Part shown: in pieces, positions 2,488-62,499 of the stretch
Numbering within the stretch: the first letter of the stretch is position 1
How the letters are laid out: each line of letters starts with the position of its first letter
From: Callorhinchus milii
Lineage: Eukaryota
Reading direction: 5' to 3'
NCBI RefSeq assembly: GCF_018977255.1
Contig: NW_024704744.1
Location: 36,332,001-36,396,000 of the forward strand
Length of the DNA stretch: 64,000 nt
The notes under the pieces: generated by a model
Told to the model about the DNA's origin: nothing
Seen by the model: only the letters and a program-made list of their open reading frames with translations
Databases searched by the model: none
Translations under genes and position numbers: made by a program

Positions 2488-3615
2488 ACAATTGTCCACG
2501 TGTGTACTATTGGTCAGTAAAATAAAACAGCATTTTTTTCAAAATGACTAGGTGACTAAAAAATTGTTTGTCCCTTTTAAAGATCTTGAATATGCAAAAA
2601 AAATTATTTGCAAATGTTTGCTAAGCAAAGGAATATGAAGCAATGTGAACAATTTATTTACAATTATTGGACTTAGATAGTGTGTCGGAAAATCTTTTTT
2701 TGCCCTAAGGAGACCATTGCAAATCAACATTTAGTTTGTATTATACCGAGACCTGAAAATGTTTGTAAAAGTCACACAATCATAAAATTATACAGCACAG
2801 AAGGAGGCCATTCAGCTCATTGTGTCTGTGCTGTTATTTGAAAAGAGCTATCCAAATCAATCCCACTCCCCCGCTCTCTCCCCATAGCCCTGCAAACTTG
2901 TCCTCCCAAAATATCTATCTATTTCTCTCTTAAAAGTTGTTATCGAATCGGCTTCCACCACCCTTTCAGGCAAATGCATTCCAAATCTGAACAACTGACT
3001 GTGTGAAAATAATTCTCATCATCTCCCCTGTGTTTCTTTTAACGACTATTTTAAATCGGTGTCCTCGGGTTACCGACCCACCTGCCATGGACATAGTTTC
3101 TCCACGTTCACCCTATCAAATCCCCTCATTATTTTGAAAACTTCTATTCAGTCTCCTCTTAACCTTCCCTGCTCCAAGGAGAATAATCCTAGCTTCTCTA
3201 GCCTCTCCTGATAACTGAAGTTAAGTTTCTTAAAAACAATTCTTCATTTAATGTTGCAAATTACGTCTTTTTTTTGTTGAATTGGGACATCAAACATTAT
3301 TGACTTAAGCATGTTGTTGGTAATATACTCTGGCTTGAGACTGATTTATAGTTTGTTAGGGTAACGGTTCTTAATATTGGAAAATGCTAGATTTAGTAAA
3401 GGGACCTTTCCTCCCCACACAATTGCCTTTAACTGAGAAGCAGTAAACATTATATTAAATCCATAGCAGGGAAAAGGACATCAGTGAAAAGCAGTCTTAC
3501 TAGCTGAAGTACAATTGTCCACTTGTGTGCTGTTGGTCAGTAAAATAAAACAACATTTTGTTCAAAATGACTAGGTGACTAAGAAAATGTTTATCCCTTT
3601 TGAAGATCTTGAACA
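2488..3615 (+). repeat. Local ~105-bp direct duplication (2488-2592 and 3511-3615)
   Basis: acaattgtccac(g/t)tgtgt...ttggtcagtaaaataaaaca...caaaatgactaggtgactaa...ccctttt(a/g)aagatcttgaa occurs twice, about 1 kb apart. Confidence 0.9.
2778..3220 (-). mobile_element. CR1 LINE 3' fragment
   Basis: Contains acagcacagaaggaggccattcagc...ttccaccaccctttcaggca...tgtgtgaaaa...ctccaaggagaataatcctagcttctc, the typical antisense CR1 ORF2 end and 3'UTR. Confidence 0.75.
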
Positions 3616-7604: not shown

Positions 7605-8330
7605 GTGTCAGGCTGGCTCAGTTGTAGCACTCTTTGCTCGGAGTCAGAATATTGTGAGTTAAAGCCCCACGTTGGGATTTGGAATCACATAGCCTAAGCT
7701 AACACTCCAATGCAGTGCTGAGAATGTGTTACATTGTCGGTGGTGCCATTGTTCAGATGAAAGATTAAACTGAGGTCCCGTCTACCTTCTTCGGAGGATG
7801 TTAAAGATCCCATGGCACTATTTGAAGAGAGAAGAGAGTTACTCTCTTCCAGTGTCCTGACCAATAATTCCCCAAATACAATTGGTCACTCACTCCATGG
7901 CTGTTTTGGGACATTGCTATAGGGAAACTGATTGCCACGTTCTGTCCACAATAAATAGTCAATCCACTTTATAGTGAAGTGCTTTGATATGTCTTGATGA
8001 TTGATAAGGTGCTATATAATAATATAAATGCTTTTCACATCTTCTAGACATCTCAAAGCGCTTCACAGAATACATTGCAAAGTGAATTGACTGTATATTT
8101 GTGGGCAAAATGCGGCAGTCAATTGTGAACCGCAGTGTCCCACAAACAGTCGGGATTGAAGTGACCAATTTATTATTCTTTTTTTTTGAGGGATTATTAT
8201 CAGACGTGTGGAGTAAGGAAACTTGCCCAAGGTTTTGCCCTGCCTGGAATCGAACCCAGGTCTCTCGCTTGTGAGGCAAGTGCTCTAACCACTGAATTAC
8301 AGGACTCCTCTATCAAATGCAAAGATTATA
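7605..8330 (+). mobile_element. Older Deu-type SINE, with its tail interrupted by a younger SINE
   Basis: Head tgtcaggctggctcagttgtagcactc; Deu-like core gatgttaaagatcccatggcactatttgaagag; tail gataaggtgctata (to 8016) resumes as tatcaaatgcaaagattat (8311-8329). Confidence 0.75.
8017..8308 (-). mobile_element. tRNA-derived SINE, short subfamily
   Basis: Reverse-complement head ends at acaggactcc; lacks the ctgtttacctagcagtaagtaggaacc...tttctggggg segment. Confidence 0.9.
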
Positions 8331-14951: not shown

Positions 14952-16342
14952 AACTAAAGAAAGTTACATCACAGAAGAAAGCCTTTCCACCCACCTTTAG
15001 AAGGAGAGTACAACAATTTCTATGTCGTCTTTTGTCATCAACCATGTGTCTACATTTGGGTTATCTGTTCCTAACTATAAACCAGCACAAGTGGCAGGTG
15101 AACAGACGCATAAAATTGAACAAACTACAGCACACCACATTAGACTATAAACTGTAATTTTTGTGTTGATCTAGCTTGTTCCAAAAACATTTAGACTTCA
15201 CATTTTTACTCAAAATATACCCTAATATTTAAGTTTAAATATTTAACGTTCTTCAATATACCGCAAGCATAAGCACACTTTCCACCCAAGCTGTATTAAT
15301 CTTGACAGTTTGCTTTTCTATTGCTACTAAACTTGATCAAGGGACCTGAGTGGCCACATATGAAAGTCTATAGTTCCCATTATAAACATGCATTGTGCTT
15401 TTCCTCTCACAATAAATTTTTACTTAACAGTAAGAAAGAACTAGTCAGATTTGCCAATCAGATATTCATAAAGCGATTTGTATTCATCATAAATCTATAA
15501 TCAAAATCGTTTTCTGAATGAAATCTAGACCACATGCATTCATACCTGTTTAATTTATCTATAGCTATCTAAACCTTGTCTATCAGGAGAATATTTTCAT
15601 GTATTTTTCCTGAATCCATACATAAGCAAGTGAAAGCCTTGTGAGATCCTGCAATGTAACACACAAAGGACCACAGTACCTGCATTCAATTAGAAGGGAC
15701 AAGAATATTCTGACAGTTCCAGGGCATATTATCTTCCCTCATTTGTCTCTTCCCATGTGTCTTTGTGGGATTCATAGCCGCGGCTGAGCACTGACAGTGA
15801 TTGTACTTGGCACTGCTGTTAACTCTAGGCACTATACAAATCTAAATAATTTGTAGAAGGGTGTCAGTTCCCAGTTTCTTCCAGCCTTGTTTTCTGACAC
15901 AAATTCATCCTCTTTTGCAAACAGTCCCATTTGTTATTCCCTTAATTCATCTGTAGTATCTGAATCAGAGATGCTTCAGAGATCCTTACGGAATACATTT
16001 ATTCATTGTTTTCCTGGGATTCTAACTGGTTACTTTGGCAATCAAATCAAGCTATTTCCCAACAGATCAGTTAAAGTCTGACCTCAAATTAAGAGCTTCA
16101 TGGTTCAGGTGCCTTGAACCTCAGTGCATACTTGAGTCCTGCCAATGTTGAATGTAATGGAGCTATGCAGTTTTTCTCTGCATCCATGCAGAAATGAAGC
16201 TTGTTACTTACACAACTCTTTCTCTGATATGGTTGAACAAATATTCAATCTTACACATCTTTCACTGAATTAAACTCAGTTCTGTTAATTAGAATAATGT
16301 CACCAATGCATTATCTATATGTTATTTTGATACTGTTGTAGA

Positions 16343-16720
16343 ATAACAACAACAAATTACATTTGTATAATGCCTTTCACGTCGGGAGAACGTCCCAATG
16401 CACTGGGAAGTCAAGGACTTGGACCCGAGCAGGGGTTGGGATCAGGAGGGCAGGAAGAGTAGGGGTAGGAAGGTGACCAAAGGTGTGATCGAAGAGAAGG
16501 GTCTTGAGATGTGCTTTGAAAGAGGCAAGGCAGGAAGCAAGCTGAAGGGACAAGGTTGGAGTTCCAAAGAGGGCAGAGAGTTGAAGGGGATGTGGAGCAG
16601 GCCAGAAATGCTGAGTGGAGGGAGCAGATAGGTTGATATGGGGTTAGAGGGTCACAGAAGTAGGAAGGAGCAAGGCCTCAGAGGCCTTTTAAGGCGATAT
16701 TCAAAGCCCTCCAAGGCCAT
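16343..16720 (-). mobile_element. L2 3' end
   Basis: caacaacaaattacatttgtataatgcctttcacgtcgggagaacgtccc is the reverse complement of the tail at 390-450. Confidence 0.8.
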
Positions 16721-19700: not shown

Positions 19701-20574
19701 CTCCAGTGCAGAAAAAGAATATTTAGGAAATAATGAAAAAAGTAATGTTTACATGCACAGTGTTGCTTACTTTTGTCGGGAGAAAGAGGTAATTCCTAAA
19801 GCATTCCCTGGCACAGTAAAAACAGATAAATCCACATCATCCTATTCAATATTGCTATTAGATCTGATTGAAAGCATAATTCAATGTATTTTGAAGTTAT
19901 ATTGCGATATTACTTAATGGGATTTCTTAATAAGGGATTCCTTCCTGCAAACAGGGATTCCTTCCTAAACCCAGTGGTAAGTTATTCCAATGTGAACTAC
20001 TTCCAAGGTGAATTTTGATCGGAATTCTAATGGGATTCCTCATTAAAAAATATTGCAAATTGGACACTTTTTAAAAAAATTAAAAGTCTAAACCTCTAAT
20101 AATGGATGAAAGATGGCAGTTGTGTCAGTCGACGCCAGCATCATTATGCAGAGGACAAAATTGAACTCTAAAATGACTGTTCTGAGTGAAAATATCAGGG
20201 GGTTTTACAAAGAGCCAATCCCAGCACTCCTATTGATTCTACAATGATCTATAGAGTCCTTAGCACATAATGAAGTGCACATTAATTGTTTTTTTTGGTT
20301 ACACATCTTCAATTAGGATGAATAGTGTGTCTTCCTGCCCTAATCCCTGAAGTGGCAACACACAACACCTACAAGGCACATACCATATAAACACTGCCTG
20401 TCAATCACTCTTCATAGTTGATCAACATTACTAAACTGTGACTAAACAAAGCTATTCAAACATTAGGTTAGCTGTAACAATACCCCTTACCCTTTATCTA
20501 TTAAAGTATATACACAGAAAAATTCATCCATGCTCATCCCGACACCCCATTTTGTTCAAAGACCTTTTCTCACA

Positions 20575-20938
20575 TAACAACAACAACAACTTGGATGTAT
20601 ATAGCGCCCTCCACACCGGACGGCGTTTCAGAGCGCTTCACAGTAATGGATCCTGGGGCCAAGCCGGGGGAGGGGGAGGAAGGTGACCAAAGGCGCGGTC
20701 GAAAAGAAAGGTCTTCAGCCGAGACCTGAAAATAGGAAGAGAGGGGATGAGGCGAAGGAAGTTTCAGAGCCTCGGGGCGTAATGGCTGAAGGCGGAGGAT
20801 TCGGGGAACAAGAATGAGGCCAGACCCGGTGGAGCGAAGGCAACGGGCACTGTTGTGAGGAGAAAGGAGGTCAGAGAAGTAGGGGTTGCAGAGGAGTGGA
20901 GGGATTTGAAGACAAAGGTGAGGATCTTGAAATCGATC
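20575..20938 (-). mobile_element. L2 3' end (second tail type)
   Basis: IDFKILTFVFKSLHSSA motif on the minus strand; (caa)n tail; closely similar to the copy at 55380-55925. Confidence 0.88.
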
Positions 20939-22856
20939 ATAATGCCTTTTGGGTTCAGAATTAGTTGTTTTGTGAATCTCACACTTCAAACGGTTTCCAA
21001 CGATCACAAACTGAGAGTTGTGATTAATCAAGAAATCTGTTTTGTGGATATTGCTCATTGAATCCCATCACCTTCATTCAGCTGCCACTTGATCTACCCA
21101 CAAGGTGAAGCAAAACAGGGTGAGGAATGTGCATCTACAGCAGCAATGGGCACTTACTACCAGTGAACAGTTGCTTTCTAGGGTAAGGAGTCTACAGTGT
21201 GTTTTATTGCAGTGAATATGGTATGAGCTGCTACCAGATTCTGCACAGGCCATTCTCTGAAGGTCTACAGTGACAGGTGAGACGATACATCAAGTAGATT
21301 TATGAAGCATGACCTATTGCCAATATGTTGACAGCCCCACATAGCCACTATGGAAATAACACTAATATAGTAGCAACAAAGCTATTAGAGATTGTTTTTT
21401 CTTCAGCTATAATGTTAACTCTATTCAAATATTAAACTAAATACAATAAAGCTACACATATGTTCCTCCTGAAACTCCATTCTTCCTTATATTTTCTCTT
21501 TTTTCTCCTATTTTTATTTAACCCTTTGTTCAAAAGAATAATTTGCACCTATTTTAGCTTTAAATCTTTCTTCTTCCCCTCATCAAATGATTCATTTTTG
21601 GAAGTGGAAGTACCCTTATTTACAATATTGTTTTCATTAGAAAATGCCTTTAGAGGCAGGTTCCTCAGCCAATATAAAGCTGAAAAAACAAAGATTGACA
21701 TGATCACATCTATTAATCTTTGAAATCAAACTTGAAAGTAGGATGCGTGAATAAATAAATTAGTTGTCAGTGCCCACAGATAAATTGCAAACACTGATAG
21801 ATAGACTAACCCAATGTTTGAAAGTTTAACCTAAAATATCCAAACCATCAATATCTTATTTTGGGTATGGCGTTAATATATATTATTTCCAACATTTATC
21901 AGTGAACTCCATTATATGGCTGTAATCAATTCTCACAGTTTTTCAGTCACCCATTATTCCTTCCTTTGTTCCCAATTTGTACTTTCTATTAAATCTAAAA
22001 TGTAATTATATTTATTATGAAGCTTCTTTATGCAACAAAATGTTTACTTTAAAATCCATAAAGCATTGTGAATCAAAACACTGTACAACACACTCAATTT
22101 AGTTACTTTTTACTGCTAATCCACGAAGTTATATAGCACTTTGGGGAGAAATTTATTGTAAGGAATTTCTTGCCTCTTCATTCATTTGGTGTGAAGTTTC
22201 ACCTATTTCGCCTGTAAAACTAATTTGTCTCAAACTTTAAGATTGTCCAGAATTGTAGAAAATCCTTCAATTTAACCTTAACGTGTAAAATCTCAAATTA
22301 AGATTGAATTTAATCATTTTCCATAATTCAGTGATCTTCTAAAATTTTAACCCAAATTTTAAGTAAACACACAAGAATGCAGTCAGAACCATCTGAAAGT
22401 TAGTAAACAGTTAAAAATGGAAGTGAACATCTTCAGAATAAATGGATTAATTCTTGATATGTTTTGATCATTATTCATTTGGTTGCATGTAGTTTCTTTC
22501 AGAGAAAGCAGTTTAAAATAAACTTAATATATTTTAATATATTAATATTATTATTATGAGGTAAAAAGCATGTTTTTCAATTTTAGTTTATTTTTACCAC
22601 AAAGTGTCTTGGAGATATAAAAGAAGCACATTTCTCTAAGACCAAATGTTCTGAGACAGTAACACATGCTGATTTATGCAAATTTTATCAGAACTTATAA
22701 CACCAAATTCTGTTCAATAACTCATAAACATATCAACAATCATAACTGATTTTTTGAGATAAATTACTTAAAAAGAGAGTTTGAGAAACAAGATGTGCCA
22801 ATGATCAGCTGAACTGAAACTACATGCTATTATACTTGATCTTTACATCCAAGAGA

Positions 22857-23412: not shown

Positions 23413-23719
23413 TAATAATCCTTGCATTCGATATAGCGCTTTTCACGCCGGGAGGATGTCCCAAAGCGCTTCACAGAACACACTGTAAAGTGAATTGACT
23501 GTATATTTGTGGACGAACGCGGCAGCCAATTGCGCACAGCAATGTCCCACAAACAGTCGTAGATTGAAAATGACCAATTTATTAATGTTTTGTTTTTTGG
23601 AGGGATTATTATTAGGCGTGCGGAGTAAGGAAACTTGCCCAAGGTTTCGCCCTACCTGGAATTGAACTCAGGTCTCTCGCTTGCAAAGTGAGTGCTCTAA
23701 CCACTGAGCTACAGGACTT
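23413..23719 (-). mobile_element. tRNA-derived SINE, short subfamily
   Basis: CpG-rich, near-identical to 51921-52240; intact A box TAGCTCAGTGG. Confidence 0.92.
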
Positions 23720-29550: not shown

Positions 29551-30414
29551 GAACTTCTGCTATGGGTGTTTGGGTTATGAATTCAGGCCCTATTGGTAAT
29601 AAGAGATGGAAAGATAGTCATTTGACATACATCAGCCTAATCCAGCTGTGCAACCTGGACCTATCCCAATTCACAGAACACACTTTTACTTTGTCTGTTT
29701 TAGCATTAAACAATAAATAATGAACGTTAATCGCTGTTTCATATTGGATTTTCTAACAGTAGTTAATATTCTCTTCCACATCTCTCCAAAATGTAATGTC
29801 ATTAGGATGCATTAAAACAGTTGCTTATTTTAAAGATCATTTAAAAAAGGTTGCAACTAAAACAACATAATGAAGAAAAATAAACAGATACCATTACAAA
29901 ATAATGAGATTCCTTTTTTTTTCTCTTTACTTCCAATAACAACGATGGTATGACCTTGCTTCTGACTGTCCTTTGACCTCCTCCCTCCCCATTCTGATTA
30001 TTATAGCCATGCTTCATTATGATGGTATGGCATTTTGCCAGTCCAATTGGGCTCAATTACTTCAGAGCCCATCAATGACAATCCCTGTGACAACTATTTC
30101 CCCTTGTCATCTGAGGTTGGGAGTCAGCAGTGCCTTCAAATATTCTATCCCTTATTATCTCTTTCGCTTGCAAGATCTAAGTTTGCCAGCTGTAGGTATG
30201 CCAAAGTACATAGTCGAGCAATGGAATAGATCAAGCGATCTTGCAAATCATATCCATGTCCATTGAATACTAATTTACCCATCGATTTGCAAGTGACTTC
30301 TTTTAGCATGGAATATCTACCGTAATACTATTGCTCAGAATTAAAACACTGAGAAAATGTTTTACAATGAACAACATTAGTAGGCATATCTTTATTCGTT
30401 ATGTAAGGTTATTA

Positions 30415-31000
30415 AACTTGGTCTGTGTTCCCTTGAATTTAGAAGATTGAGGGATGATCTCATGGAGTGTTTAAAATGGATTTGATAGCGTAGCTACAGA
30501 GAAACTATTTCTTCTGGTGGGGGAATCCAGAACAAGGGGGCATAATTGTAAGATTAGAGCTAGGCCATTTAAGAGTGAAATCAGGAAGCATTTTTTCACA
30601 CAAAGGGTAGTGGAAATTTGGAACTCCCTCCCAAATTGTTGTAGATGCTGAATAGATTCAAATTTCCAGACTGAGCTCAACACCCTGTAGTTGGTCAATG
30701 TGGCGGATGCTTTCTGGGGCTAATTATCCCTTCAAAACAAAAAATAATTTGTTTACTAAATCCATGACTGTGTGTGGCACACTGCTGTGTACAATTGGCG
30801 GCCGCATTTTGCCTATAAAATACATACTCACTACATTTTACAGTTTATTCTGTGTAGTGCTTTGAGACATCCCAACAATGTTATAAGGCGTTATATCAAA
30901 GACAAAGATTGTTATTATTATTATCAGCCATGATCTAATAGAATGGTGGAACAGGCTCGAGGGGTTGAATGGCCTATTCCTATTCCTATGTCCCTATGTT
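30415..31000 (+). mobile_element. CR1 3' end with a nested SINE fragment at ~30690-30923
   Basis: gaatttagaagattgagggatgatctcat...ttcacacaaagggtagtggaaatttggaactc; after the SINE tail it continues tcagccatgatctaatagaatggtggaacaggctcgaggggttgaatggcctattcct. Confidence 0.85.
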
Positions 31001-35700: not shown

Positions 35701-38700
35701 ATTTTCTCCACACAAATTGTGCTTGTGACTATCACATATCCACTACAGCATATCTGTACTTACACACAACTAGGATTTTTGGCATCCACCTATGTTTTAA
35801 CATACTATATCTGTCATTTTCTTTCTTTACAGAGGAACTAAGTCCCTCTACAGTTCAGAGTACCACAGTAGTATAGGTCATACCAGTCTGTGTAAACATC
35901 CAACATTTATGTCTCTGTGTCTCCACAAACTAATGAATCACACAAGAACTTTGGAAAAGAGAGATATTATTTAGGGGACCTAATTGAAATTTTCAAGATT
36001 GTGAAGGAAATTAAGAAAGCTGATTCAGCCAAATTATTAACTAAGATAAATCTTTCACATGTTAGCGGCACAGGTAAAAACATAGGAAGTTAGTGGTAAG
36101 AGGGAGAATCAGTAAAACTTTTCCACTCACAGGGAAACAAATTTGTGCAAGAAGTCATCAGTAAAGGCCACTGAAATGAATAGTGTACTTGAGTTCAACT
36201 GTCAAGTGGATGTGTTTCTGGAATGGGAAGGGATTAATCTGCTTGGTTTAGGTTGTAGCATTTTCACCTTTGAGGCAGAATGCCCCATTTGAGACATTTC
36301 AACTGACGCTCCAGTGTAGTTACAGAAGTTTCTTCCAATGTCCTGGCTAACAATATGCCAGATAAAATTGGACATTCATTTCATGGCTGTTTGTGGGGCA
36401 TTGTTGTGTGCAAATTGGTTGTTGATCTCATCTCCAAAATACATAGTCACTATACTTTACAGTAAATCTTGTGAAGCACTTTGAGACATCCACCCAACAT
36501 TAGTATGGTCTTGTCAATTTATCTTCAGGTGAATATTAAAGATCCTATGACACTAATGGAAAAGAGAAGGGAGAATATTTTATCTGACAAACAATCCAGA
36601 TAATGATGGTCCTATCCTTTGTTCACTTACAAAGCATGTAGAATTCCCACAAGCTGTGGGTAAATTGTGAAGCTAATGAGAGGTTGCAATTCTTGCCTGA
36701 TTTGATGAATAGAGAGGTATAGAAATCGATGGGGAAAGTCTTGATAATTGACTGTTAGAGATCAAACAAGATATCGGTAATGTTTTTTTTCAACCATGTA
36801 CACTATGATAGAAAATACGTTGGAAAGAGTTGGGACTCGAAGAATTGATTATACACCTGAATCTTAGATCATGTCTTGTACCAATAAATGTTTGCACAAT
36901 GGTCCACAGAGGAAGAAAAGGCATAACATATAAAATATACATTTATATAGTATCTTTCCCAATAAGTCTAAATAAAGCTTGAAGATCAGATTTGGAAATT
37001 CTGAAATATTTTAACTTTAATCTCTTATTCATGACATTTGTTGCATATGCCATTGCATTTTCCGAGTGATTGACACAATTAGAAATGTTTATAACATTAG
37101 AGCTTTTACCTGTTATCCTGTTAACGAACTAAAACAAGAATAATGTTAAGATAGATTTCCAAGGTTGGGGTTCTTACCTGGTTCATGTGCCCGCATGAAA
37201 GGTGAATGTAAAACTAAAGATGTCTTAGCATACATCAAAACAAGAATGTTTCAAGCATAAATGTCATCAGTCACCCTGGTGCAAAGCTCATTGAGCAATA
37301 TCATATAGAAATTGTAATGTGCAACCCCATTTTCTGTAAGGATTAGGTTAGTAGTCACTAGATTTATGACCCAAGGTAAAGCCTACATGAAGTAATGAGG
37401 ATTCAAAGTAATTAAAAAATGGAGTTTGTTAAAATTAAAATCTTAATATGACTCAGCATGAGTAAGAATTCTCTAGTTATAATGAGATATTAGTTATGCT
37501 ACTGTCATCCAAAATAAATATAGCAGTACAGGTGGATAGAATTAAGGAGCACAGAATCTCAGGGTTATATTTAACTCTTGCAGTGTTATTTTATTTGGTC
37601 AGTCAGGTGTTTGACCCATGAAACCCATTACCATACTTATGGGTAGCCAACCAGACTGAGAGTTCATATGTATGCCACCGACACATAAAATTTTTACCAG
37701 TGTCTGGAATAGATTGTACACTTTCTCCCTGGATGGATACACTCTGCTGACTTAATTCTGGAGAATATTAGGTGCAGGTTGGCAAAACCTAAAGCATGGA
37801 GTAGGGGTTGTATACCATTCCCTGATTGGATTTCGGGAACGCCATCACCAGACAGGATCCCAGGTTTCTGGGGTGCTGTATGGTAATGGTGCTCCCAAAA
37901 TTCCAGGATTGCAACCGTTTACATGGAGACCCCAAGAGAGTACATTGGGGCACTGCTGGAGTTTAACCATGCAGCTTGCCATTGAGGGCAAACTTCCTGC
38001 TGCTTGTCCAACTAGGACCCAGTCAGCACCTTGGGACGTCATTGTTGTTGTTGTTGCTATCAAATAGGGCTTTGGCTTGCAGGGTTAACAGAATCCGAGT
38101 GAAAAGAATCCCTGCCCCTTGACTCGACTGAGCATGCTGACTGGTCTGTCATTAACAGTGTCCTGGAGTACCTCTGACCTGCTTTCTCAGGAACCGGATA
38201 CCAAAACAATGACAAAGCATTGACTCATTCCTGACATTTTGTTCCTGCAATTTCACAGCCAGCTTCACTCCAAGGAGACCCTGCTTACTTCTCCTTATTC
38301 CCCCACCCATAGAATAGTATGAATTTCTATAGAAGGTTACTCTCCAAATTCCAGAATTGAGCAGGATTATTGGCCCAGAGATACATGATCATTAGAAAGA
38401 TCAAATGAAGATAGAACATAGCAAATGAAGCCAAATGTTTGATACAAGGCTTGAAAATATTAGCTTGTTATATTATCTAAGGATGGCACATATTAACTAT
38501 ACATCTAAAGGGTGAGAAAAGAGACTGCCAAAGAACAGAGGGAAGGAGAAGTATCAAATAGTCAAATAGCTGAAAGCTTGAAAAGAATAAAATATTGATG
38601 CCGTGTGAATGGGGAGAAAATGAATTAAAATGCTGCAGTGATGACCCATGCACTTCAGTGTTGAGAGCCAAAAAGAAGGTGCAAGCCTTAACATTGGCCC

Positions 38701-39272
38701 TCCCAACAGGAGAGGCAGAGCATATAAATTCTTGTAATTTATTGTGTTTTTATAACCAGTCTGTAGTACAGATGATCTTATTCTGTTAAGTTCAGCAGTG
38801 ATTTAATTGTGGCTGTGTGATAAAGGACTGCTGCAACTTCTATGGAATATTACATTTCTCCAAATTTCGGCTTGCCTTTTCCTTTTCAAGAGCATGTTTA
38901 TTTTTTGGGTGCTGAAATACACAAAATGTATGAAACATGTGTATATAAAAGGAAATGTTAAATTATTAGTACTTCTTAGTATTCAGATACTCAGCAGTTG
39001 GAATTAGAAGTGAGAGCACTTGACATACACACACATACATGCATACTTCCTACCTGGGGACAACTGGATAGCATTCGACAAGTTTCCTGGTTTATTTTTT
39101 CATCCCTCCCTAACTGAGGCACTAGAGCCAATTGTAGATCCCCAACTTCTATTCTGGTTGATATTAAGTACCTCAACACAGAGTGAGAAGGAAATCTCGC
39201 AACCTTCTAGTCTATATGACTCAGTATTACATTGGACAGTTCCATGACCAGCTCAGTCATCGGGAAAACTCT

Positions 39273-39985
39273 TACAACAACCACAAAATTATATTTGTAT
39301 AGCGCCTTTCACGTCGGGAGGACATCCCAAGGCACTGGACAATCAGTGTTTCAGACTCAAGCTGGGGGTCGGGATCGGGGAGGGTGGAGAGCAGGGGGGG
39401 GGAAGGAGGTTGACCGAAGGCACGGTCGAAGAGGAAGGTCTTGAGACAAGTCTTGAAGGAGGCAAGAGGGTGGGGGGCGAGGTGCAGGGACTGTGGGATG
39501 GAGTTCCAGAGGGTGGGGCCAGAGTGGCTGAAGGCCCGCCCGCCAATGGTGGGGCGGGCAAGGCAGGGGATGTGTGAGGCATGAAAGACTGGGCAGAGGA
39601 ACCAGTTGATGATGAAGAAGAGGAGCCTGGGGTTGGCCGTGGCCTCCAGGATTGTTTTGGAGTAGAAGGATGATTTAGTAGAGCCGAGAGCAGAGCGGTA
39701 TGATTTGATAAGATCCAGCCAGATCTGCTGATGGACTGTTAAGTTGGATTTGAGCCAGGTGCGTTCAGCGATATGCAGCTGGGCCTTAAGGGAGCAGAGG
39801 TTGCTGGTGTACCAGTCTGACTTCCATGAGTAGGAGACGGTTCTGGAAGTGAGGGGGCAAGAGCATCAAGAGTGGTGTAGAGGGAGTTGTGGAAGAGAGT
39901 GACTGAGGAGGATAGGTCATTGCGGGAGGAAGCCCAGAGTTGGAGGTGTTCAGATGACTCCAAGGCAGTGGAGAGGGGGGAGGGT
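39273..39985 (-). mobile_element. Internally deleted L2 (3' end fused to an upstream ORF2 segment)
   Basis: 3' tail at 39273-39580; 39590-39985 encodes LFHNSLYTTLDALAP and QIWLDL...FYSKTILE-like EN/RT linker motifs. Confidence 0.75.
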
Positions 39986-41212: not shown

Positions 41213-44200
41213 GTTGGGATAAAATGTGTATCAAGATGCAATTTAAAACCAGACAGAACAAACCTGGTCTTGAGAATATCGACAGAATAGTGCTCTGTCA
41301 CTCCCGAAGGCATTTGACTCATTTTCCCCCCCAATCTGCCAGGTATCTTTCTACTCCAACTAAGCTATGGGTTCATTAGGTACCAAGCAAGTCACTAAAT
41401 AGCCTTTATTCATGTGTGAGCCTTGATAGTACATTCTAGTAGGCTATTCAATCATAGAACCATGGGAAGCTATCACACCCAAGCCAAACCATCTCATGAC
41501 CAGACATCCATGTATACACAGCTTCCAGCACAGGTCCTTGGAGAGCAGTCAGCAGTAGGAACTTTGGCTGATTTCTTTCTCTCTGATCCAGAGGTGCCAA
41601 GGCCAACTGTATCTTCCCAATTGCCCTGACTGTGATGATCTATCTCAGCATGGATTGGAATTCGAAACAGACAATTTCTTGTCTGGATGATCTACTGCTG
41701 CACCATGTCATCGGGGAGCTGGAAGGATATCTATTTTTAGCAATCAATGAAAACTGGACCCTATTGGAGTCTAAAAGCATTGCTTTACAAAATAATTCAC
41801 CAGCAGTGACTCAGTCAGTACTATGAAATCCAATGGATAGGGAATTATCCTTTGACCAAGTGATATTCTATGACCAAGTTTTTGATTTGATTTTTAACAT
41901 TGTCATTGGATATCAACATTTATTTTCTCATTTTGTTTTGGACTTTAGTGATCTTTTCAACAACAAAAAGGGTCAAGTTCCCATCGGCACAGCACTCAGG
42001 AAGTAATGTCCTTGATGACTCGGACATGGGCCTTTTTTGTAGTTTAAAATGATAAAAAAATGTTTTAAAAAATTGTTCAATGATGCAATTAGGTTTCTTC
42101 GATTTGGAGAATCAACGTTTATCATAAGTTTAATTAATACCAAAGATAGGTGTCAGTCTGGCTCAGTTGATAGCATTCACTCTTGCCTCTGAATCATTAT
42201 GATTGTGGGTTTAAGCCCTATGTCAGGACACTCCAATACTAAGTGGATGGTTGATTCAGAGAGCCGACACAAATACAGTGTACCAAATGGCCTCCCTATG
42301 CACTGTAAACTTCTGTGATTTAATGATACCACTGCTGAGAATTTATAGAGTACCAACATTAAGTAATGAAATGGAGGCGTGCTAATGCAAATTAGCATTC
42401 CTGTGTAATTTACTAGACTGCCACTGATCTGCAAATTACTACTGTATGTAGAACGGAATTACAGGAATTTCAGACTCCTGTTATTGACCCACAAACAGGA
42501 TATGTATTACATCAAATTGCCATTGATTTATTTTAGAACTGCTGTGATTTCTCAAAAACACAAACAATGTTAGCATGAGAAATCACACCCTTTAACCTCC
42601 GAGAATAAAAATGCATGGAAGTTGATTTTCACTTGGGAATTGAATGGAACGTACTGCTCAAATATTTTTAGGTTCATGTCAGATTCTTCGAGTCTAGGAG
42701 ATCATTGGCTTTTGTCCACTTCAATGCATGCTGTAAACTTTTTGGTCCTTTAAGGAACATTATTTTCCTCAAAGGTTTCTGAGCTTATGCCATACCCAAA
42801 CTCTTTTGTCGATATGATATGGACCTCTGTAAAAACTCTGAGCTCTGACTTAAAAGTAGATCCTAGCCAAGCAAAAAATTACACCTGTGTATTACTGAAG
42901 GCTATTTTCAAATACATTCAAATGTCCTTAATAATGTAATCAACCATCAATGAAAAATATTGCAGAGAATTCTGTAACCTATTTCATTGTTAACTACACT
43001 GTTAAAGGCATCTGTAAACATGTACCTCGGAGTTGCACTCTGAGACGCTGTCCTGCATGAAGGGTACAACTTAACTGCAAGTTGTTGTTGTTGGTGTATG
43101 CGTCTGAATATTGTTAGCTTATGAGCTGTTAGTTCAACTCACATTTTAAACCCTATTGTTAATTGTTATTTGAAATTTCATGAAATTGTGAGCTGTGCAA
43201 CTTTAGGTTTCCCATCTCTTGGAGCATGATTTATCACTGCATTGCTTTTCAGAATCAAATAAATGGAACATAACACCTGATAATTTAAAGGCATTGAATC
43301 CATTAAGGTATTTAATCCATTGAGCCTTCTTTAGACAAATATGCAATATTTTACTCTATTTTGTATTCCACACAATGTATTTCATTGGCTCACACAAATT
43401 GCTGTGAACTTTCTCCTTGATCCAGAAAGATAATCAAGTGCAACTCTAGATTTTCAATGTAACCAGCTATCTTTCATTATTCAGCCTTTGACCAGTTGCT
43501 TCCCACAGATGGCATTTTGTTGGTCCCAGCAGCATAGGAACTATTATGTTCCACAAGGTATTCAATCATCTCTGACCATGCTTATCATTAGAGCCTTCAA
43601 TTATGCCCGTAACAAGATATTCATCGAGCTCTTCTAAAGGAGTTAATCAACACAAAAGTTGCTGCTTCTGCTGGGGGTCTACTCCATGTATTCAATGCAG
43701 TGTATAAAAATAATATTTTACTACCTTCTACTTTGGTTTAAAACTTATTAATTTTAAACCTTCATCATCTTGTTCTGTGTTCGCAGTTCAAGAAATAGAA
43801 ATAGGTTGTTCTTTTCAATGTCTCTTGGTATTTAAAAGCCACAAATTATATACCTTTATCATCTTCTCCAGAGTAAATGCAGTTTAAATTCTGAATTCCC
43901 TTAGGTAATCTTATAATCCTATGTCTTGGAAACATGCTTGTATCCCAAACTGCAAAAGTTGCAAAACTTTTTTAAAAAAAACAAATGTAGTCTCACTAAT
44001 GACTGATACAGAATTAACATAACTGTTATGATTGACACCCAAGTTGTCTCAACGACCATGCAATAAAACTCTAATATTGTTGTTGATTTACGGAAGTGAA
44101 ATGGATTTGCAGTTAATAAGGAAAACAATTGCAGGGAGCTTTAGCTTATATCAACCTGCATCACAGAGATTGCTTCACGGCTAATTTGTTTCTTTGCCTG

Positions 44201-50400: not shown

Positions 50401-51920
50401 GAAGGACATTAAGTTTGATAGTTATTTATGTACCCTCAGTATTGTAATTTGTCAGATGATCCCACTAACATTTAGTCCGGAAAGTACTCCAGGTGTTCTG
50501 ATTTGCCCAGTTTATTATGTTGTGTATTTGTCAATACGTGTATATCTAAATTCTTTTGATTTAATAAAATGTTTATATCTTGTGCATAATATTTCGCAAT
50601 GGAGGGTTGCATTGCTGCATGGAATCATATTAGCACGGGCATATACATTGTGTTACATATTTGAGTCCTGATCAGTTTGAACATGATCCATGAGTTGGAA
50701 ATTCAATTGGATTAGTGTCTGATATAGGCTCAAATTTAAGATTAGAAAGCTTCTCCCACATTCCCTACTTTAATTCCCTCATGAATTAAGTTGACATAAT
50801 TTCTATTTAAGATGTGAACTTTATTTACTTATTTTCCAGAACGCATTCCAGCTTAACCTTCCTCCATGCTCCAGTAGTAAGTTCCCCATTTCTACTGGAA
50901 GTGTGACAGTCTGTCTGTGAGTAACTTGAAGAAGTGAGATATCGAGCCACCTCCTCAACTTCTCAAAGGAGAAGAAAAATGTTCCCCCTGAGTATGTTCC
51001 CAACTGTGCAAATCCCATTATAAAGATGGAGCCATCTTATTAACTGTCAAGGTCAGGATTTCTTTCATAGCAATCTCTTGGGTGATTTGAATAGATCTGA
51101 TTTGGTTCCCATTTGTATTTCCTCCTTTTCAAATCCTCAAAATGCTGCCACTTTGTTAGTTGTAATAAGACCTTTAGGGAGATTCAATGGAATAATCGGC
51201 CTAAGGAAACATCCTTGAGTTTCCCTTCCAGCCCGAAACAGCCTAATGTTGGGATTGGTTGATAAACCAACATTGCAATGTGTGGATTTGAAAACAGGTT
51301 GCTGCATAAAAGGATTAAGATGACCAGCTGTCTTATTTTTATATCATTATAATTGAATTATTAACCTGGAAGCTCTATCCTTTAGCAAAAATATTAGAAA
51401 TAATTTGAAAATATTCTTAAGAATTTTGACTGATATGCTTGGAGGGTTCATCTTAAAAGTATAATTGAACCTGGGCATGATATTCAGTTTTATTAAATCT
51501 ACCTTCCTGGATAATGAAAGCGTTGAGTTTCAATCAGAATAGATAATCTCTATTTGTGCACTGCAGTGCCTTATAATTAAACTCTCTGATGTTAGTAGGA
51601 TGGGAACAATCTTAATATTTAAGTATGAGGTCTAAAATCCTTTGACGAAGAAATGTTCATCAACTTTTCAATGGCTAAGATTTAAATTATTCCTGTCAAT
51701 ATGTTAACCTGAAAGAATGATGTGAGGCAGCAAATTATCAAACTTTCAGATCTTTTATAAGTAGATTATTAGGTAGATCCTTGATCCCTAACATTAGTGC
51801 CCTGAATGTAATGATTTATCTAGAAAACTGGTGACGCCAACACTAAAATGCAGTAAACTACAGTAATTTTTAATCCTGAGATTAAAAGGAAAGAAACGTT
51901 CTAAAATAACTTGCACTTTG

Positions 51921-52206
51921 TAGTCCTGTAGCTCAGTAGTTAGAGCATTCGCTTTGCAAGCGAGAGACCTGAGTTCAATTCCAGGTCAGGGCGAAACTTT
52001 GGGCAAGTTTCCTTACTCCACACGCCTAATAATAATCCCTCCAAAACAAAACAATAATAAATTGGTCATTTTCAATCTACGACTGTTTGTGGCAATTGGC
52101 TGCCGCGTTCGCCCACAAATATACAGTCAATTCACTTTACAGCGTGTTCTGTGAAGCGCTTTGGGACGTCCTCCCAACATGAAAAGCGCTATATCAAAAT
52201 GCAAGG

Positions 52207-52240
<34 letters not shown>
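51921..52240 (+). mobile_element. tRNA-derived SINE, short subfamily, long (ATT)n tail
   Basis: tagtcctgtagctcagtagttagagc...gagttcaattcc; about 11 ATT units at 52207-52240. Confidence 0.92.
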
Positions 52241-54458: not shown

Positions 54459-55379
54459 CCTCAAGAATCAAGTCAACCAAAAAAATATTTCCTGGTAAGA
54501 TTCTGGCAAACACAGCTGTGTCAGCTTTCTCATAGTAAGGGCACTTATCTCCAAAATAATGGTTGATGTGCTGACATTCTCTTTAAGGGGTTGTTTTTTA
54601 AAGCCATCATATACGAGCTATGTGTTCTAGAAATGTCTGTCAGCACTCACACTGATTCTTTCTTCCTCACTAGTGGTAGATTACAGCTCATTTGTGGTCG
54701 AATTAGTTAGACAGAAGAATCTTTTTTCCCAGGGAATTGTTCTGTTCCACACTTACTGATCTTTTGTTTATCATTTCCAAAGTTTCTGCCATTTGTGGCT
54801 CCAACCCCTTATGTCAGGCAATCACTTGCAGCTTTTTCCTCCACACTACTAATAATAATCCTTACATTGGATATAGTTTTCAGGTCAGGAGGACATCTCA
54901 AAGTGAATCACAGGATATACTCTAAAGTCGAGTGGCAATGTATTACATAGGCTAACGATTGTGCTCACCATTCTGACTGCTGATGAATTCAAAATTAACT
55001 TTCATTTGTTGCACCTTTTCTTCTGCATCTTGAAATGTAAGATAGGCTCATGTAGAGAATTCAGGGCTCACCCTTTTTAAAATGGGCACTTCCAGATTAC
55101 CAGAATTTGTACGAGCAACTTCTCAGTTTTCTCCCACAAAATATACCGTCAATCCATTTTATAATATATTCTGTGAAACACTTTGAGACGTTGAAACAAT
55201 ATGATAAGGTGTTATATCAAATGCAAGGATTATTATATATATATATATATATTACATTTTGTAACCATTGCTCCAAAGACCTCAGATGCTCACTTCCTAT
55301 GTCAATGATGTCAATGATGTCCCTATAGGTATTGTCTCTGTCCTGTTATATCTGGTCCATGCCTTTGTCACCTCTCAGA

Positions 55380-55925
55380 TGGATTAGTCAAATGCTCTCC
55401 TCGCCGGTCTCCCCTCCACTACCATCCATAAAATTCAGGTCATACAAAACTCTGCCGCCCGCATTCTTGCCCGCACCAAACTCCGCTCCCCGATTACCCC
55501 AGTCCTTGCCAGACTGCACTGGCTGCCTGTCCCAGAGAGGATCGACTTGAAGATCCTCACTCTTGTCTTCAAATCCCTCCACTCCTCTGCACCCCCCTAC
55601 CTCCTCTCTCTTCACAACAATGCCCATCGCCTTCGTTCCACCGGGTCTGGCCTCCTCCTTGTCCCCCAAGTCCTCCGCTCCATCCTCAGTGGCCATGCTT
55701 TCAGCCACTACGCCCCGAGGCTCTGGAACTCCCTTCCTCTCTCCCTTCGCCCCACCCCATCTCTTCCTATTTTCAAGTCTCGGCTGAAGACCTTTCTTTT
55801 CACCGCGGCTTTGGTTACCTTCCTCTCCCTCCCCCTCCCCCTGGCTCGGCCCCGTGAAGCACTCTGAGACGCCGTTTTGGTGGAGGGCGCTATATAAATC
55901 CAAGTTGTTGTTGTTGTTATTGTTA
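55380..55925 (+). mobile_element. L2 3' end
   Basis: IQNSAARILARTKLRSPITPVLARLHWLPVPERID...KILTLVFKSLHSSAPPYL; (ttg)n tail. Confidence 0.9.
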
Positions 55926-56317: not shown

Positions 56318-56720
56318 CGACTTCAAGATCCTCACAATCGTATTCAAATCCCTTCACTCCCTGGGACTTCCCTACCTCTCCGACCTCCTTGCTCCCCAAT
56401 CCACTACCCGGTGCATCCACTCGACTGGCACTAGCCTCCAGCTTGTCCCTCGCATTCTCCACCCCACCATCGGAGGTCGCGCTTTCAGCCACTATGCCCC
56501 GAAACTCTGGAACACTCTCCCTCAATCCCTCCACCTTGCCCCTTCTCTCCTGTTTTGCAAGTCCCACCTGAAAACCTTCCTCTTCTACCATGCTTACGGT
56601 CAACTCCCCGCCCCAAACCCCCGGCTTGGAGTCAGGCTCTGCCACTGTTAAGCACTCTGAGACACTACGCTGCGTGGAGAGCACTCTATAAATGCAAGTT
56701 GTTGTTGTTGTTGTTGTTGT
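56318..56720 (+). mobile_element. L2 3' end
   Basis: DFKILTIVFKSLHSLGLPYLSDLL...GGRAFSHYAPKLWNTLP; (gtt)n tail. Confidence 0.9.
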
Positions 56721-58489: not shown

Positions 58490-58849
58490 GGAGTTCTATA
58501 GCTCAGTGGTTAGAGCACTTGCCTCGCAAGCGAGAGACCTGGGTTTGATTCCTGGCAGGGCGAAATGTTGGGCAAGTTTACTTACTCCACACGTCTCTGT
58601 TTACCAAGCAGTAAGTAGGAACCCGATTGTTAGTAGATTGGTGGATCACTTTTCTGAGGGTAATAACTCCTTAAAAAAAAATTAGTCACTTCAATCCGGG
58701 ACTGTTTGTGGGACACTACTGTGCGCAATTGGTTGCCGCGTTTCACCAATAAAATATACAGTCAATTCACTTTACAGTATATTCTGTGAAGCGCTTTGAT
58801 TCATCTCAAAGATGTGATAAGGCACTATATCAAATGCAAAGATTATTAT
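58490..58849 (+). mobile_element. tRNA-derived SINE, long subfamily, full length
   Basis: tagctcagtggttagagcacttgcctcgcaagcgagagacctgggtttgattcc plus body and tail. Confidence 0.92.
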
Positions 58850-58864
58850 AGTGAGGTTTGAATT

Positions 58865-59152
58865 TAGATCCTCACCTGGCTACTCTCGCTCCCCATCCCC
58901 CGGAGGATTGAGTTCAAGATCCTCATCCTCACCCTCCATGGTCTTGATCCTCTCTATCTCAAGACCTATCTCTTTGACTGTGCCTTCGGTCATTTTCCCA
59001 CACCACCCAAGCCTATCCTCCACTTCTCTTAATTCCATTCCCCAGTTCGGGTGCAAACTCTTTATTGTCCAGTGCCTTGAGACATCCTCTCGATGTGAAA
59101 AGCGCTACATAAATACAATTTGATGTTTGTGGTGCTGGTGGTGGTGGTGTTG
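58865..59152 (+). mobile_element. Heavily deleted L2 3' end
   Basis: ctccccatcccccggaggattgagttcaagatcctc joined to the 3'UTR and tail gtgaaaagcgctacataaatac. Confidence 0.7.
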
Positions 59153-60941
59153 TAAATTGCCTAGCCTTGGAGCGTTGGTTTATAACTGGGCTGCTTATAG
59201 CATTATCAGGTAAACTGTACGTTAAAGCTCATTTGTCATTAGGAAAAACAGTTTTGCTTGCAGAGCAATATTGGTTTCTAAAGGCTGAGTTTGATTTGAA
59301 TTCAGCTTGTCAACTTTCTTCCCAGTTGTGCAAACTTTTTTTCGATAGGATCACCTATTACTGTGACTGAAACTGAAAATCTTTATGTTTCTTATAGGCT
59401 TATAAGTTCTGCGTACCCTACTTTGTCTCCCCACCTTTGGTTTATCAGCTAACTGACTTTTTTCACTCAGTTTTGACATTTAGTCCAACGGTGCACAATG
59501 GAGAAGAAACCACGTTTTAAGAAGTAATCTTTTTAGAGGATTAGACTAAAGCTACTTTCGTGCCAAGATTTTCCTTTTAAATTGCTTGTCTGGGCTTCTA
59601 ATAAGATCCCTTGGCACTTATAATCCGTCTGGTATATCAACCTTTCAGAGGGCAGCATTGTCCGGATGAATGATCTGTTACCTGTTCAGTGGATTCTCAT
59701 GTACCTGCGAGCACTCAAATCCATACTTATTTCTTCATTTCTGCCTTTGTTAAAACACCACATTTTACTCGAAATCTGAATTAAATAGTGTTTAGCATTT
59801 CAGTGAAAATGCATTCAATTTCAAACAAAAACAACTGTGTCATTTCATTCAAGTGTAGTAACTTACTTCTCTTAGGTTTTATCATAAAGTAAGGTATTAG
59901 TGATAAGTAGTATCATTCCCTGAAAAGATTATATACCAGGTAGAGATAGTAGCTAATATTATGCATCCCATTAATGCCTCAATTTTGGCAGTAGATATGT
60001 GTAAAGGAGATATGTATAATGAAAATCTCCTGAGTTGTAATTCAGATCCCATGGGCGGGGTGTGTTGGGGGCTGACTTGATATCCTGTAAGTGACCAAGT
60101 CCCATAATTGTAAATTATTTTCAGCTCTAAGATTGTGATATGTACCCTATTCTATGGCTCTTTATGTGTTCCATTTATAGCACTTGATGGCAAATAAATA
60201 AAATTATAAGAACTGGATGCAATATGTTAAATTATCATCAAGTGAATGAATTGTGGTTTGGTTTGGTTTCATTCACTGTGTACCCTTTATATCTACGTAT
60301 CATTGTAATCTTCTGATAAAATTGGTCATTTGCATCATGGCTGTTTGTGGGACATTGCTGTGCACAAATTGGCTGCTGGGTTCACCTCCAAATACAGTGT
60401 GCAGAACTTTGAGATGTCCTTGCAAAGTGAAAGGTGCTATCTCAAATGTAAGGATTACTATTATTATATGTGATACAAAAACAATCTCAGGGAGGAGACA
60501 CAAATTACCTTTTTCTTTTATGGAATTTATATTTCAAAACCAAATATGGTAAACTTTCCCAGGAGCATGTTCTGTTTGGCAGGATATAAACTGTCAGCAT
60601 TTTCATACCTGTAGATTTTGCACTTCCAATGATCAAAAACAATTAATAACAATTTCACAAGAGAGGTTCACAGATGAAAAAAAGCCGGTCGACCCATTTG
60701 ATCTCATCCTTTCAGAATACCCACTCTTCCATCCAGAAGGTATCAATAACTCTTGCAAACGTCCTGGTGAGGAACGCAGCTCAGAAGGAAATGCGTAAGA
60801 GCATTGGCACCATCTTCCTGCCCACAGTTCAGCCACAAATACCCATCCATTAAGTAATGGTTCCACCAGTTGGAAGCATGTAGGTTGAGCAGCAGCTGCT
60901 TGCATCTCTGCCCACCAATCAAAGTGGATACCATGCCCTAG

Positions 60942-60942
<1 letters not shown>

Positions 60943-60973
<31 letters not shown>

Positions 60974-61190
60974 CCTTGTATTTGATACAGCACCTTATCA
61001 CGTTGTTGAGAGACATCTCAAAGAGCTTCACATAATATTCTGTAAAGTGTAGTAATTGTGTGTTTTTGTGGGCCAAACACGGCAGCCATTGTGCATAGCA
61101 GTGTCCACAAACAGTTGTGGATTGAGTGACCAAATTATTATTATTATTATTATTATTTTTTGGAAGGGATTATTTACCCCTCGGAAAAAG
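60943..61190 (-). mobile_element. 5'-truncated SINE with (ATT)n tail, downstream of the MFSD2A retrocopy
   Basis: (taa)n at 60943-60972, then the reverse-complement SINE body to gaagggattatttacccctcggaaaaag. Confidence 0.88.
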
Positions 61191-61354
61191 TATCAGTCAG
61201 GTTCATCTGTCAAGTTTTGATTGATGTCGTTGTAGGGATGTGGTGCATGGCAGATAGACAAGAAACATGTTAATTCCTGTTTGAGTCTTATACTCATACT
61301 GTCCACAACTCCTGAGCTCAGAATTGTAAACACGTAAACATCTTGACGTATATT

Positions 61355-61670
61355 CTACACTGCTGCCGAGTTTGTACAAGTTTGTTCCAGAATCTTACCC
61401 ATTGTCTCGTAAATCCTCCAAAGGCACTTTTCTGTTCTTCATCCACATCTCTTCGTCGATGAGGTAGGGTTTGAAGAGGATGACTCCGATGACGATGAGG
61501 AAAATGGGTGCTGGAGCGACCAGCATCTTCACTGTGAAGTGCACGGTGTTGGGCTGGGTGCAACCCCTGGTCAGGTAGCCTGCAAAGTCAAGGCTTGGAG
61601 TAGAGATTCTGAGGGAGATCCCAGAGGCAAACATGGTGAAGAAGACATCAAAAGAATAAAATATTGCTTC
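61355..61670 (-). pseudogene. MFSD2A: 5'-truncated processed pseudogene (retrocopy) of the LPC transporter MFSD2A, C-terminal ~105 codons
   Basis: The minus strand reads EAIFYSFDVFFTMFASGISLRISTPSLDFAGYLTRGCTQPNTVHFTVKMLVAPAPIFLIVIGVILFKPYLIDEEMWMKNRKVPLEDLRDNG*DSGTNLYKLGSSV. This matches the MFSD2A C-terminus as I recall it (IFFSFYVFFTKFASGVSLGISTLSLDFAGYQTRGCSQP...YPIDEERRRQNKKAL...SETDSTELASIL). There is an in-frame TAA at 61395-61397, substitutions at conserved sites, and no upstream homology. Confidence 0.85.
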
Positions 61671-62499
61671 TAATATGGAGCATCTAATCTCAGTATTTAA
61701 GTCTTTAAGATGTTGAGAGGAATAATTAATATAGATGTAAGTAAATCATTTAATGTAAATAATGATCACAGACCTATAGGACATGAATACAAAATTAACA
61801 AGATTCAAGCGTGATTTGAATGAAGATGTTTTCCCTACAGATTAATAGATATATCATATTAGCTTTAACAGTGGTTATGATGTGAAGTTAATGAATTCCA
61901 GTATAAAATAACACTGCATAAAAATGGGTTAGGATTAGAAAGATAAATATAGAGAAAGATTATCGAATACTGTGTGGAACCTAGCAGTTCCTGTGCTGTT
62001 AGAACTGTGGAAATGTTTTCAGTTCAGGGCTGAATCTTGTATGTTGTACTGTTTGACTGACACATTGAAGTTTTGCTGGATTGCCTTAGGGGATCAGAGA
62101 GAAAATTCAAAGACTTTGACTTCCTGGAGTTTTATCTGTGATCAGATCATCTCCCATGAAGAGATTCAATAGCAGAGTGCATGTAAGGTACACTGTACAT
62201 CATCCGTGCAAAGAATTGGCTTGATCAGCTACATGTCCTTTTCTCCATCATAATTTTCTTGTATTCCGATGTTCTGAGCATCCAGAGTAATGGAACTACT
62301 GACCTGTGGCAGATACAGTTCTATGTTCACTCCCAAGGCAACAAGATAAAAGTAGCCATTAAACGGATTATAGCTGGCTCTGCCAAATATACTTTACAAC
62401 CTCTTTCTCTGCATTATCACCTTTCAAATCACCCTAGGAGGAGGGGGCAAATAATCACAACAAGTTTAATTCTACAGAGAAAGAGGAAACAAAATTACA

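Follow-up and report, generated by a model that had tools for sequence, protein, structure and literature searches.

Can a cellular mRNA be copied back into a genome from the tail of a SINE, with no poly(A) involved? The question is raised by a locus on the minus strand of the window (here the whole stretch of 64,000 nucleotides that was analysed), where a fragment of MFSD2A coding sequence, about 165 bp of unique sequence and a 5'-truncated SINE follow each other in the same orientation and end in (ATT)n. This order had been proposed by a first-pass annotation, and tblastn, nhmmer and the terminal repeat agree on it. According to the standard view, CR1/L2 enzymes are restricted to their own tails, so that few retrocopies result (PMC5470649; scarcity also in PMC3747384), and in the literature searched, which covered few subscription journals, no report was found of an mRNA being retrocopied by priming at a SINE tail of the L2/CR1 type.

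The retrocopy and the SINE behind it

When C. milii MFSD2A (P0001) was aligned to the window by tblastn, residues 456-559 fell on 61670-61356 of the minus strand with 85/105 identical positions (E 1e-44), the homology starting at residue 456 and reaching the final residue of the parental protein. The closest homologue of this processed pseudogene fragment (61356..61670, minus strand) is the MFSD2A of Callorhinchus milii itself, with 82% identity, other chondrichthyan proteins reaching 71-72%, and the MFSD2A entry of the PDB also matches it (E 1.6e-29). The fragment consists of 315 bp of coding sequence, is 5'-truncated and isolated from the rest of the gene, and is disabled by a premature stop at 61397-61395 and by one extra codon; all of its 19 replacements can be reached from the parental codon by a single-base change, and 12 of the 79 columns invariant among six chondrichthyan MFSD2A proteins are altered. 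The single-base replacements and the lower match of the other chondrichthyan proteins make C. milii or another chimaera the most likely source of the window. It reads uninterrupted through residue 542/543, where one of 119 homologous gene models (P0066) ends and near which a second C. milii model (P0007) diverges. We take the MFSD2A introns to lie near residues 483 and 542, the literature searched having offered no exon map of the gene, and the fragment is likely intron-less. No further MFSD2A exons were detected by tblastn in the 64-kb window (next match E 3.2), which includes only 2.3 kb of upstream sequence. Genuine last exons and a segmental duplication were both rejected, because the fragment is likely without introns, carries disabling changes and is accompanied by no other exons in the window; it is a dead pseudogene in neutral decay, with no function of its own.

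Between the fragment and the SINE lies a spacer of about 165 bp (61189..61355, minus strand), unique in that neither the rest of the window (best E 0.75) nor Rfam offers a match to it. It comes after the site of the parental stop codon, and its start right after the last coding residue suggests that it may represent the proximal MFSD2A 3'UTR.

The SINE body (60974..61188, minus strand, with a 5' boundary fuzzy to ~61213) is CmiSINE-like and belongs to a tRNA-headed type, the tRNA-like head being absent from this copy itself and present in its full-length siblings. In an nhmmer search of the window with a model made from 12 further copies found there, the target being left out, it was matched at 61192-60957 (minus strand) over model positions 151-369 of 371 (E 2e-49). 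On the 5' side of the internal A-tract the SINE homology is secure as far as about 61188, and the stretch 61193-61215 alone is not significant as SINE, 214 of 2000 random stretches scoring as well. The tract, A6(TAA)7 (61135..61161, minus strand), is the expanded form of an A-rich tract that is shorter in the sibling copies; SINE homology stands on both sides of it and extends 26 columns past it, a result equalled by 7/2000 random stretches. Its interpretation as a decayed poly(A) of the retrocopy was therefore rejected. Towards the 3' end the SINE carries an L2-type tail stem-loop (60972..61035, minus strand), which the window's L2 3' ends also have, and a tandem (ATT)n terminal repeat of 10.7 units, 100% pure (60942..60973, minus strand).

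That no poly(A) follows the fragment, as had been noted from the sequence, was borne out, with A6(TAA)7 belonging to the SINE. Over 59500-61360 (1.86 kb) the minus strand contains neither AATAAA nor ATTAAA, and one A-run only, at 60519-60510, which was discarded as an L1-type end since it has no signal before it and no target-site duplication (TSD) after it. No long TSD was found within 5 kb, where 57 of 60 random junctions attained the best score of 8 and no such repeat followed an A-run. The poly(A) tail and the 10-16 bp TSD expected of an L1-type retrocopy were hence absent from the 1.86 kb and the 5 kb searched, with moderate power. A repeat pair around the SINE alone was found at none of the four boundaries tried, a search of low power. 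TSDs discriminate poorly here, because most control copies are without them, a 5-6 bp repeat having been seen in only three of eight full-length control SINEs.

SINEs and L2 ends in the window

The SINE model gave 28 matches in the window, six of them tail-only, leaving 22 copies per 64 kb (~1 per 3 kb), of which nine are full-length. Five of the 22 cluster apart, and eight of the 17 CmiSINE-like copies are 5'-truncated. The five, at 62646-62500 (-), 60319-60466 (+), 36364-36501 (+), 23021-22853 (-) and 54202-54019 (-), are older and have only the 3' part in common with the main SINE; they are probably a second family, similar to SacSINE1-CM. Within the window, three short-form SINEs, 23720-23411 (-), 51920-52240 (+) and 8308-8001 (-), lack ~60 nt of the long-form body, and two of them are the youngest copies, with end branches of 0.017 and 0.028.

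Four SINE heads in the main family were called tRNA by ARAGORN, three as tRNA-Ala and one as tRNA-Val, and the tRNA calls of ARAGORN and Rfam at 8235-8306, 23648-23717, 51923-51993 and 58492-58563 were set aside as SINE heads rather than tRNA genes. The CmiSINEs of Callorhinchus milii (SINE2-1_CM / SINE2B-1_CM) are described as tRNA-Ala-headed, with a tail common with L2-2_CM (PMC5499810), and the family found here fits this description, having a tRNA-Ala-like head in its full-length members and a 3' end shared with the second SINE family and with L2; the likeness is to the published description. The divergence of the target SINE also lies near the reported averages of 12.6-17.2% (PMC5499810). 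Unlike a typical CmiSINE, the copy at the locus is truncated and fused behind mRNA-derived sequence.

The assignment of the SINE tail to the L2 type held as well. L2-like 3' ends, all closing with (TTG)n, are present at 9-455, 55352-55920, 56320-56720 and 58900-59130 on the plus strand and at 16340-16680, 20570-20940 and 39270-39550 on the minus strand, and they match reverse-transcriptase/endonuclease protein (best E 4e-23). The SINE tail aligns to six of these seven ends, with scores equalled by no more than 8 of 300 random window stretches, and tail and L2-like ends fold into a common stem-loop of 12 pairs. Counting against an L2-primed insertion at the locus, the L2 ends in the window carry (TTG)n whereas the SINE carries (ATT)n, and the exact L2 partner is not pinned down.

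One insertion or several events

We consider it plausible, with a probability of roughly 0.55, that the MFSD2A fragment, the spacer and the SINE derive from one L2-primed insertion; the reading is unproven and concerns one locus. L2 proteins are reported to need a cognate stem-loop and not poly(A) (PMC4176376). A single retrotransposition would have produced 61670-60942, in which the L2 ORF2 protein would bind the stem-loop of the SINE tail, reverse transcription would be primed from an AT-rich nick at the (ATT)n repeat, and copying would proceed from the truncated SINE into ~165 nt of MFSD2A 3'UTR and then 315 nt of spliced coding sequence, where it would stop and leave the copy 5'-truncated. 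The new copy would have been dead on arrival and would then have decayed neutrally. We infer that both parts arrived together, as well as the route and L2 as the enzyme, and L2 would presumably be able to begin at a repeat within an mRNA. Two routes can be envisaged. The SINE may already have resided in the parental 3'UTR, the mRNA thus carrying the recognition signal internally, or the enzyme may have jumped from SINE RNA to MFSD2A mRNA. In C. milii, 104+34 mRNAs are reported to carry these SINE families, all in their 3'UTRs (PMC5499810). The resident SINE is favoured, since an older SINE would then be expected and no rare jump is involved, and we propose it tentatively; the template switch appears doubtful. 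These weights, like those given below to other explanations, are a matter of judgement and were not computed.

The first-pass annotation had proposed a single insertion, and two observations point that way without either being significant once slack in the boundary and effects of subfamily are taken into account. A TATTA 5-mer (61671..61675, minus strand) abuts the start of homology and is a candidate 5-bp TSD merged with the (ATT)n tail. It has the phase of the SINE tail repeat, which would occur by chance in 0.7-1.3% of cases at the exact position and in 3-7% once boundary slack is allowed, and a tail-phase 5-mer was seen at the 5' junction of none of 13 control SINE copies. It was counted for a single insertion, and its 5 bp fall within the peak of L2 TSD lengths, reported at 3-5 bp (PMC4245944); with boundary slack it is not significant and remains a weak sign. 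At 61676-61689 (minus strand) two codons could match the parental Ser-Ile if one codon was lost, and the 5' junction of the retrocopy may therefore lie up to ~14 bp further out than 61670.

The second observation is one of relative age. Divergence amounts to 20/158 (12.7%) in the SINE and 19/241 (7.9%) in the retrocopy (Fisher p=0.12), or, at non-CpG positions, to 13/140 (9.3%) and 11/~225 (4.9%), respectively (Fisher p=0.13). The SINE thus appears at least as old as the retrocopy, as would be expected of one already resident in the UTR, the difference being not significant; this gap is moreover biased upward, since the consensus was built without the target, which clusters with one other copy (85/88 support) and may owe part of its distance to a subfamily difference. 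The terminal repeat is unusually long and pure for a SINE of its age (32 nt, whereas 10 of the 11 controls that could be read have 3-15 nt and one young copy has 34 nt), but slippage can also yield such a tail and the internal tract of the same SINE is likewise expanded, which counts against reading it as a mark of a single insertion.

How much can be built by chance was judged from the density of SINEs around the locus. A same-strand SINE 5' end lies within 170 bp of a random point with p=0.029 when the 21 other copies are considered and p=0.010 for the seven truncated ones, and within 1 kb with p=0.16 and p=0.06, respectively; adjacency goes beyond chance only modestly, and the locus was chosen after the fact. 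A 5'-truncated SINE at 30684-30921 (plus strand) offers a nested control. It sits within a repeat 3' end at 30400-31000, shares the strand of its host, and has lost its 5' part up to almost the same point as the target SINE. Its flanks match, in order, an uninterrupted copy of the host repeat at 2780-3250, with ~75 nt of host missing; we take both host copies to be CR1-like. This copy is a nested insertion with the same layout as the locus, and against the single-insertion claim it demonstrates that chance can build the same picture.

The same copy, with its ~75 nt of missing host sequence, lends some substance to a later independent insertion, in which a retrocopy with a longer UTR came first and a 5'-truncated SINE landed in it afterwards, the UTR continuing below 60942 or having been lost in a target-site deletion. 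The dense SINEs, their frequent truncation and the p values of 0.06-0.16 for a same-strand copy within 1 kb agree with such a history, as does the possibility that 60941-60769 is UTR: these 170 bp beyond the tail have no assignment and are followed by an old repeat end, which neither proves nor excludes a UTR. We nonetheless consider a later insertion unlikely, as the SINE is, on weak evidence, not younger than the retrocopy, no poly(A) signal follows in 1.86 kb and no A-run with a TSD in 5 kb, and no repeat pair flanks the SINE alone, the latter search being of low power. The old repeat (60660..60768, minus strand) is interspersed, with four more copies in the window, and, to judge by its motifs, presumably represents a CR1-like 3' end; its copies share 57-77% identity with each other. 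It bears on a less likely explanation still, namely that the SINE was mere cargo in the parental UTR and that reverse transcription began downstream, either with an L1/Tx1-type enzyme at the true poly(A) or at the tail of a different LINE, for instance the CR1-like end at ~60660. The direction of the age difference suits such passive carriage equally well, the A-rich run at 60519-60510 would give an ordinary UTR length, and the CR1-like end lies on the same strand 170-280 bp beyond the SINE tail; in addition, LINE1 was reported from all the vertebrate lineages surveyed, elephant shark included (PMC4350176). However, the A-run is neither preceded by a canonical signal nor followed by a TSD, and the CR1-like piece is far more decayed than the retrocopy. 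Least probable of all appears a juxtaposition, either through a later deletion that joined the retrocopy UTR to the middle of a downstream SINE or through a cDNA patch captured at a break beside one. A single deletion would account for the absence of both the poly(A) and the SINE head, the junction at 61213-61188 is indeed fuzzy, and the SINE is as old as the retrocopy or older, but an extra event is required and the 5-mer in tail phase at the distant 5' junction is left unexplained.

Known chimeras, wider meaning and flanking sequence

Both parts of the locus, the processed pseudogene and the SINE, are of kinds already known. As in the processed pseudogenes of cartilaginous fishes, a multi-exon gene is represented at the locus by a 5'-truncated, disabled and probably spliced copy (bioRxiv 10.64898/2026.06.26.734816), which differs from them in having neither poly(A) nor an L1-type TSD, its 3' end, if it is an end, being a SINE tail. 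Small-RNA chimeras attributed to template switching have been described with L1, Alu, CR1-SINE and RTE tails (PMC4494074, PMC5729268, PMC7245038), including U6/U1/U2 fused to L1, Alu or pseudogenes (cited in PMC4494074), a tRNA-SINE switch that gave PittSINE under CR1 (PMC5729268) and a snoRNA-RTE chimera in platypus (cited in PMC5499810). They share with the locus a cellular RNA as 5' part, the same orientation and a retroposon 3' end, and this chimeric layout, with the parts in one orientation and the retroposon part at the 3' end, is present here. In contrast to them, the 5' partner here is an mRNA, probably spliced, the enzyme would be a stringent L2, the chimera is a single copy and not a family, and a SINE resident in the UTR would need no switch. 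The 5' extensions of SINEU-2, derived from a host multicopy gene (PMC4494074), likewise place host gene sequence 5' of a SINE, although SINEU-2 is Tx1-related and its host part has not been shown to be a spliced mRNA.

Cartilaginous fish genomes are reported to contain 14,081 retrocopies, amounting to 5.4% of loci (bioRxiv 10.64898/2026.06.26.734816), and the SINE-tail route, if true, would reconcile the tail stringency of CR1/L2 with this number. Under stringent L2/CR1 enzymes a sense-strand SINE in the 3'UTR might license a gene as a LINE template, its retrocopies would end in SINE tails and not in poly(A), SINE insertion would decide which genes retroduplicate, and a real share of the retrocopies of cartilaginous fishes could have this origin, the present locus being one example. 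Such a generalisation is speculative and at present rather unlikely; if true, an excess of sense-strand SINE tails would be expected at the 3' ends of retrocopies, and one of UTR SINEs in the parental genes.

The surroundings of the locus look intergenic or deep intronic. Of the 151 open frames of at least 70 aa, 146 were scanned with Pfam together with four shorter ones near the locus, and these 150 frames returned two sub-cutoff matches and no host gene, Rfam was empty near the retrocopy and SINE, and a phmmer search of one 3'-flank frame against 1.84 billion representatives yielded only three weak matches, to repetitive proteins. An exon-like stretch at 60710-60793 (plus strand), with a pyrimidine tract and CAG before it and GTAAGA after it, is probably due to chance, because the old CR1-like repeat overlaps with it on the opposite strand. 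In the 5' flank of the retrocopy, 62112-61939 forms an inverted repeat pair with 43402-43589, at 62-73% identity.
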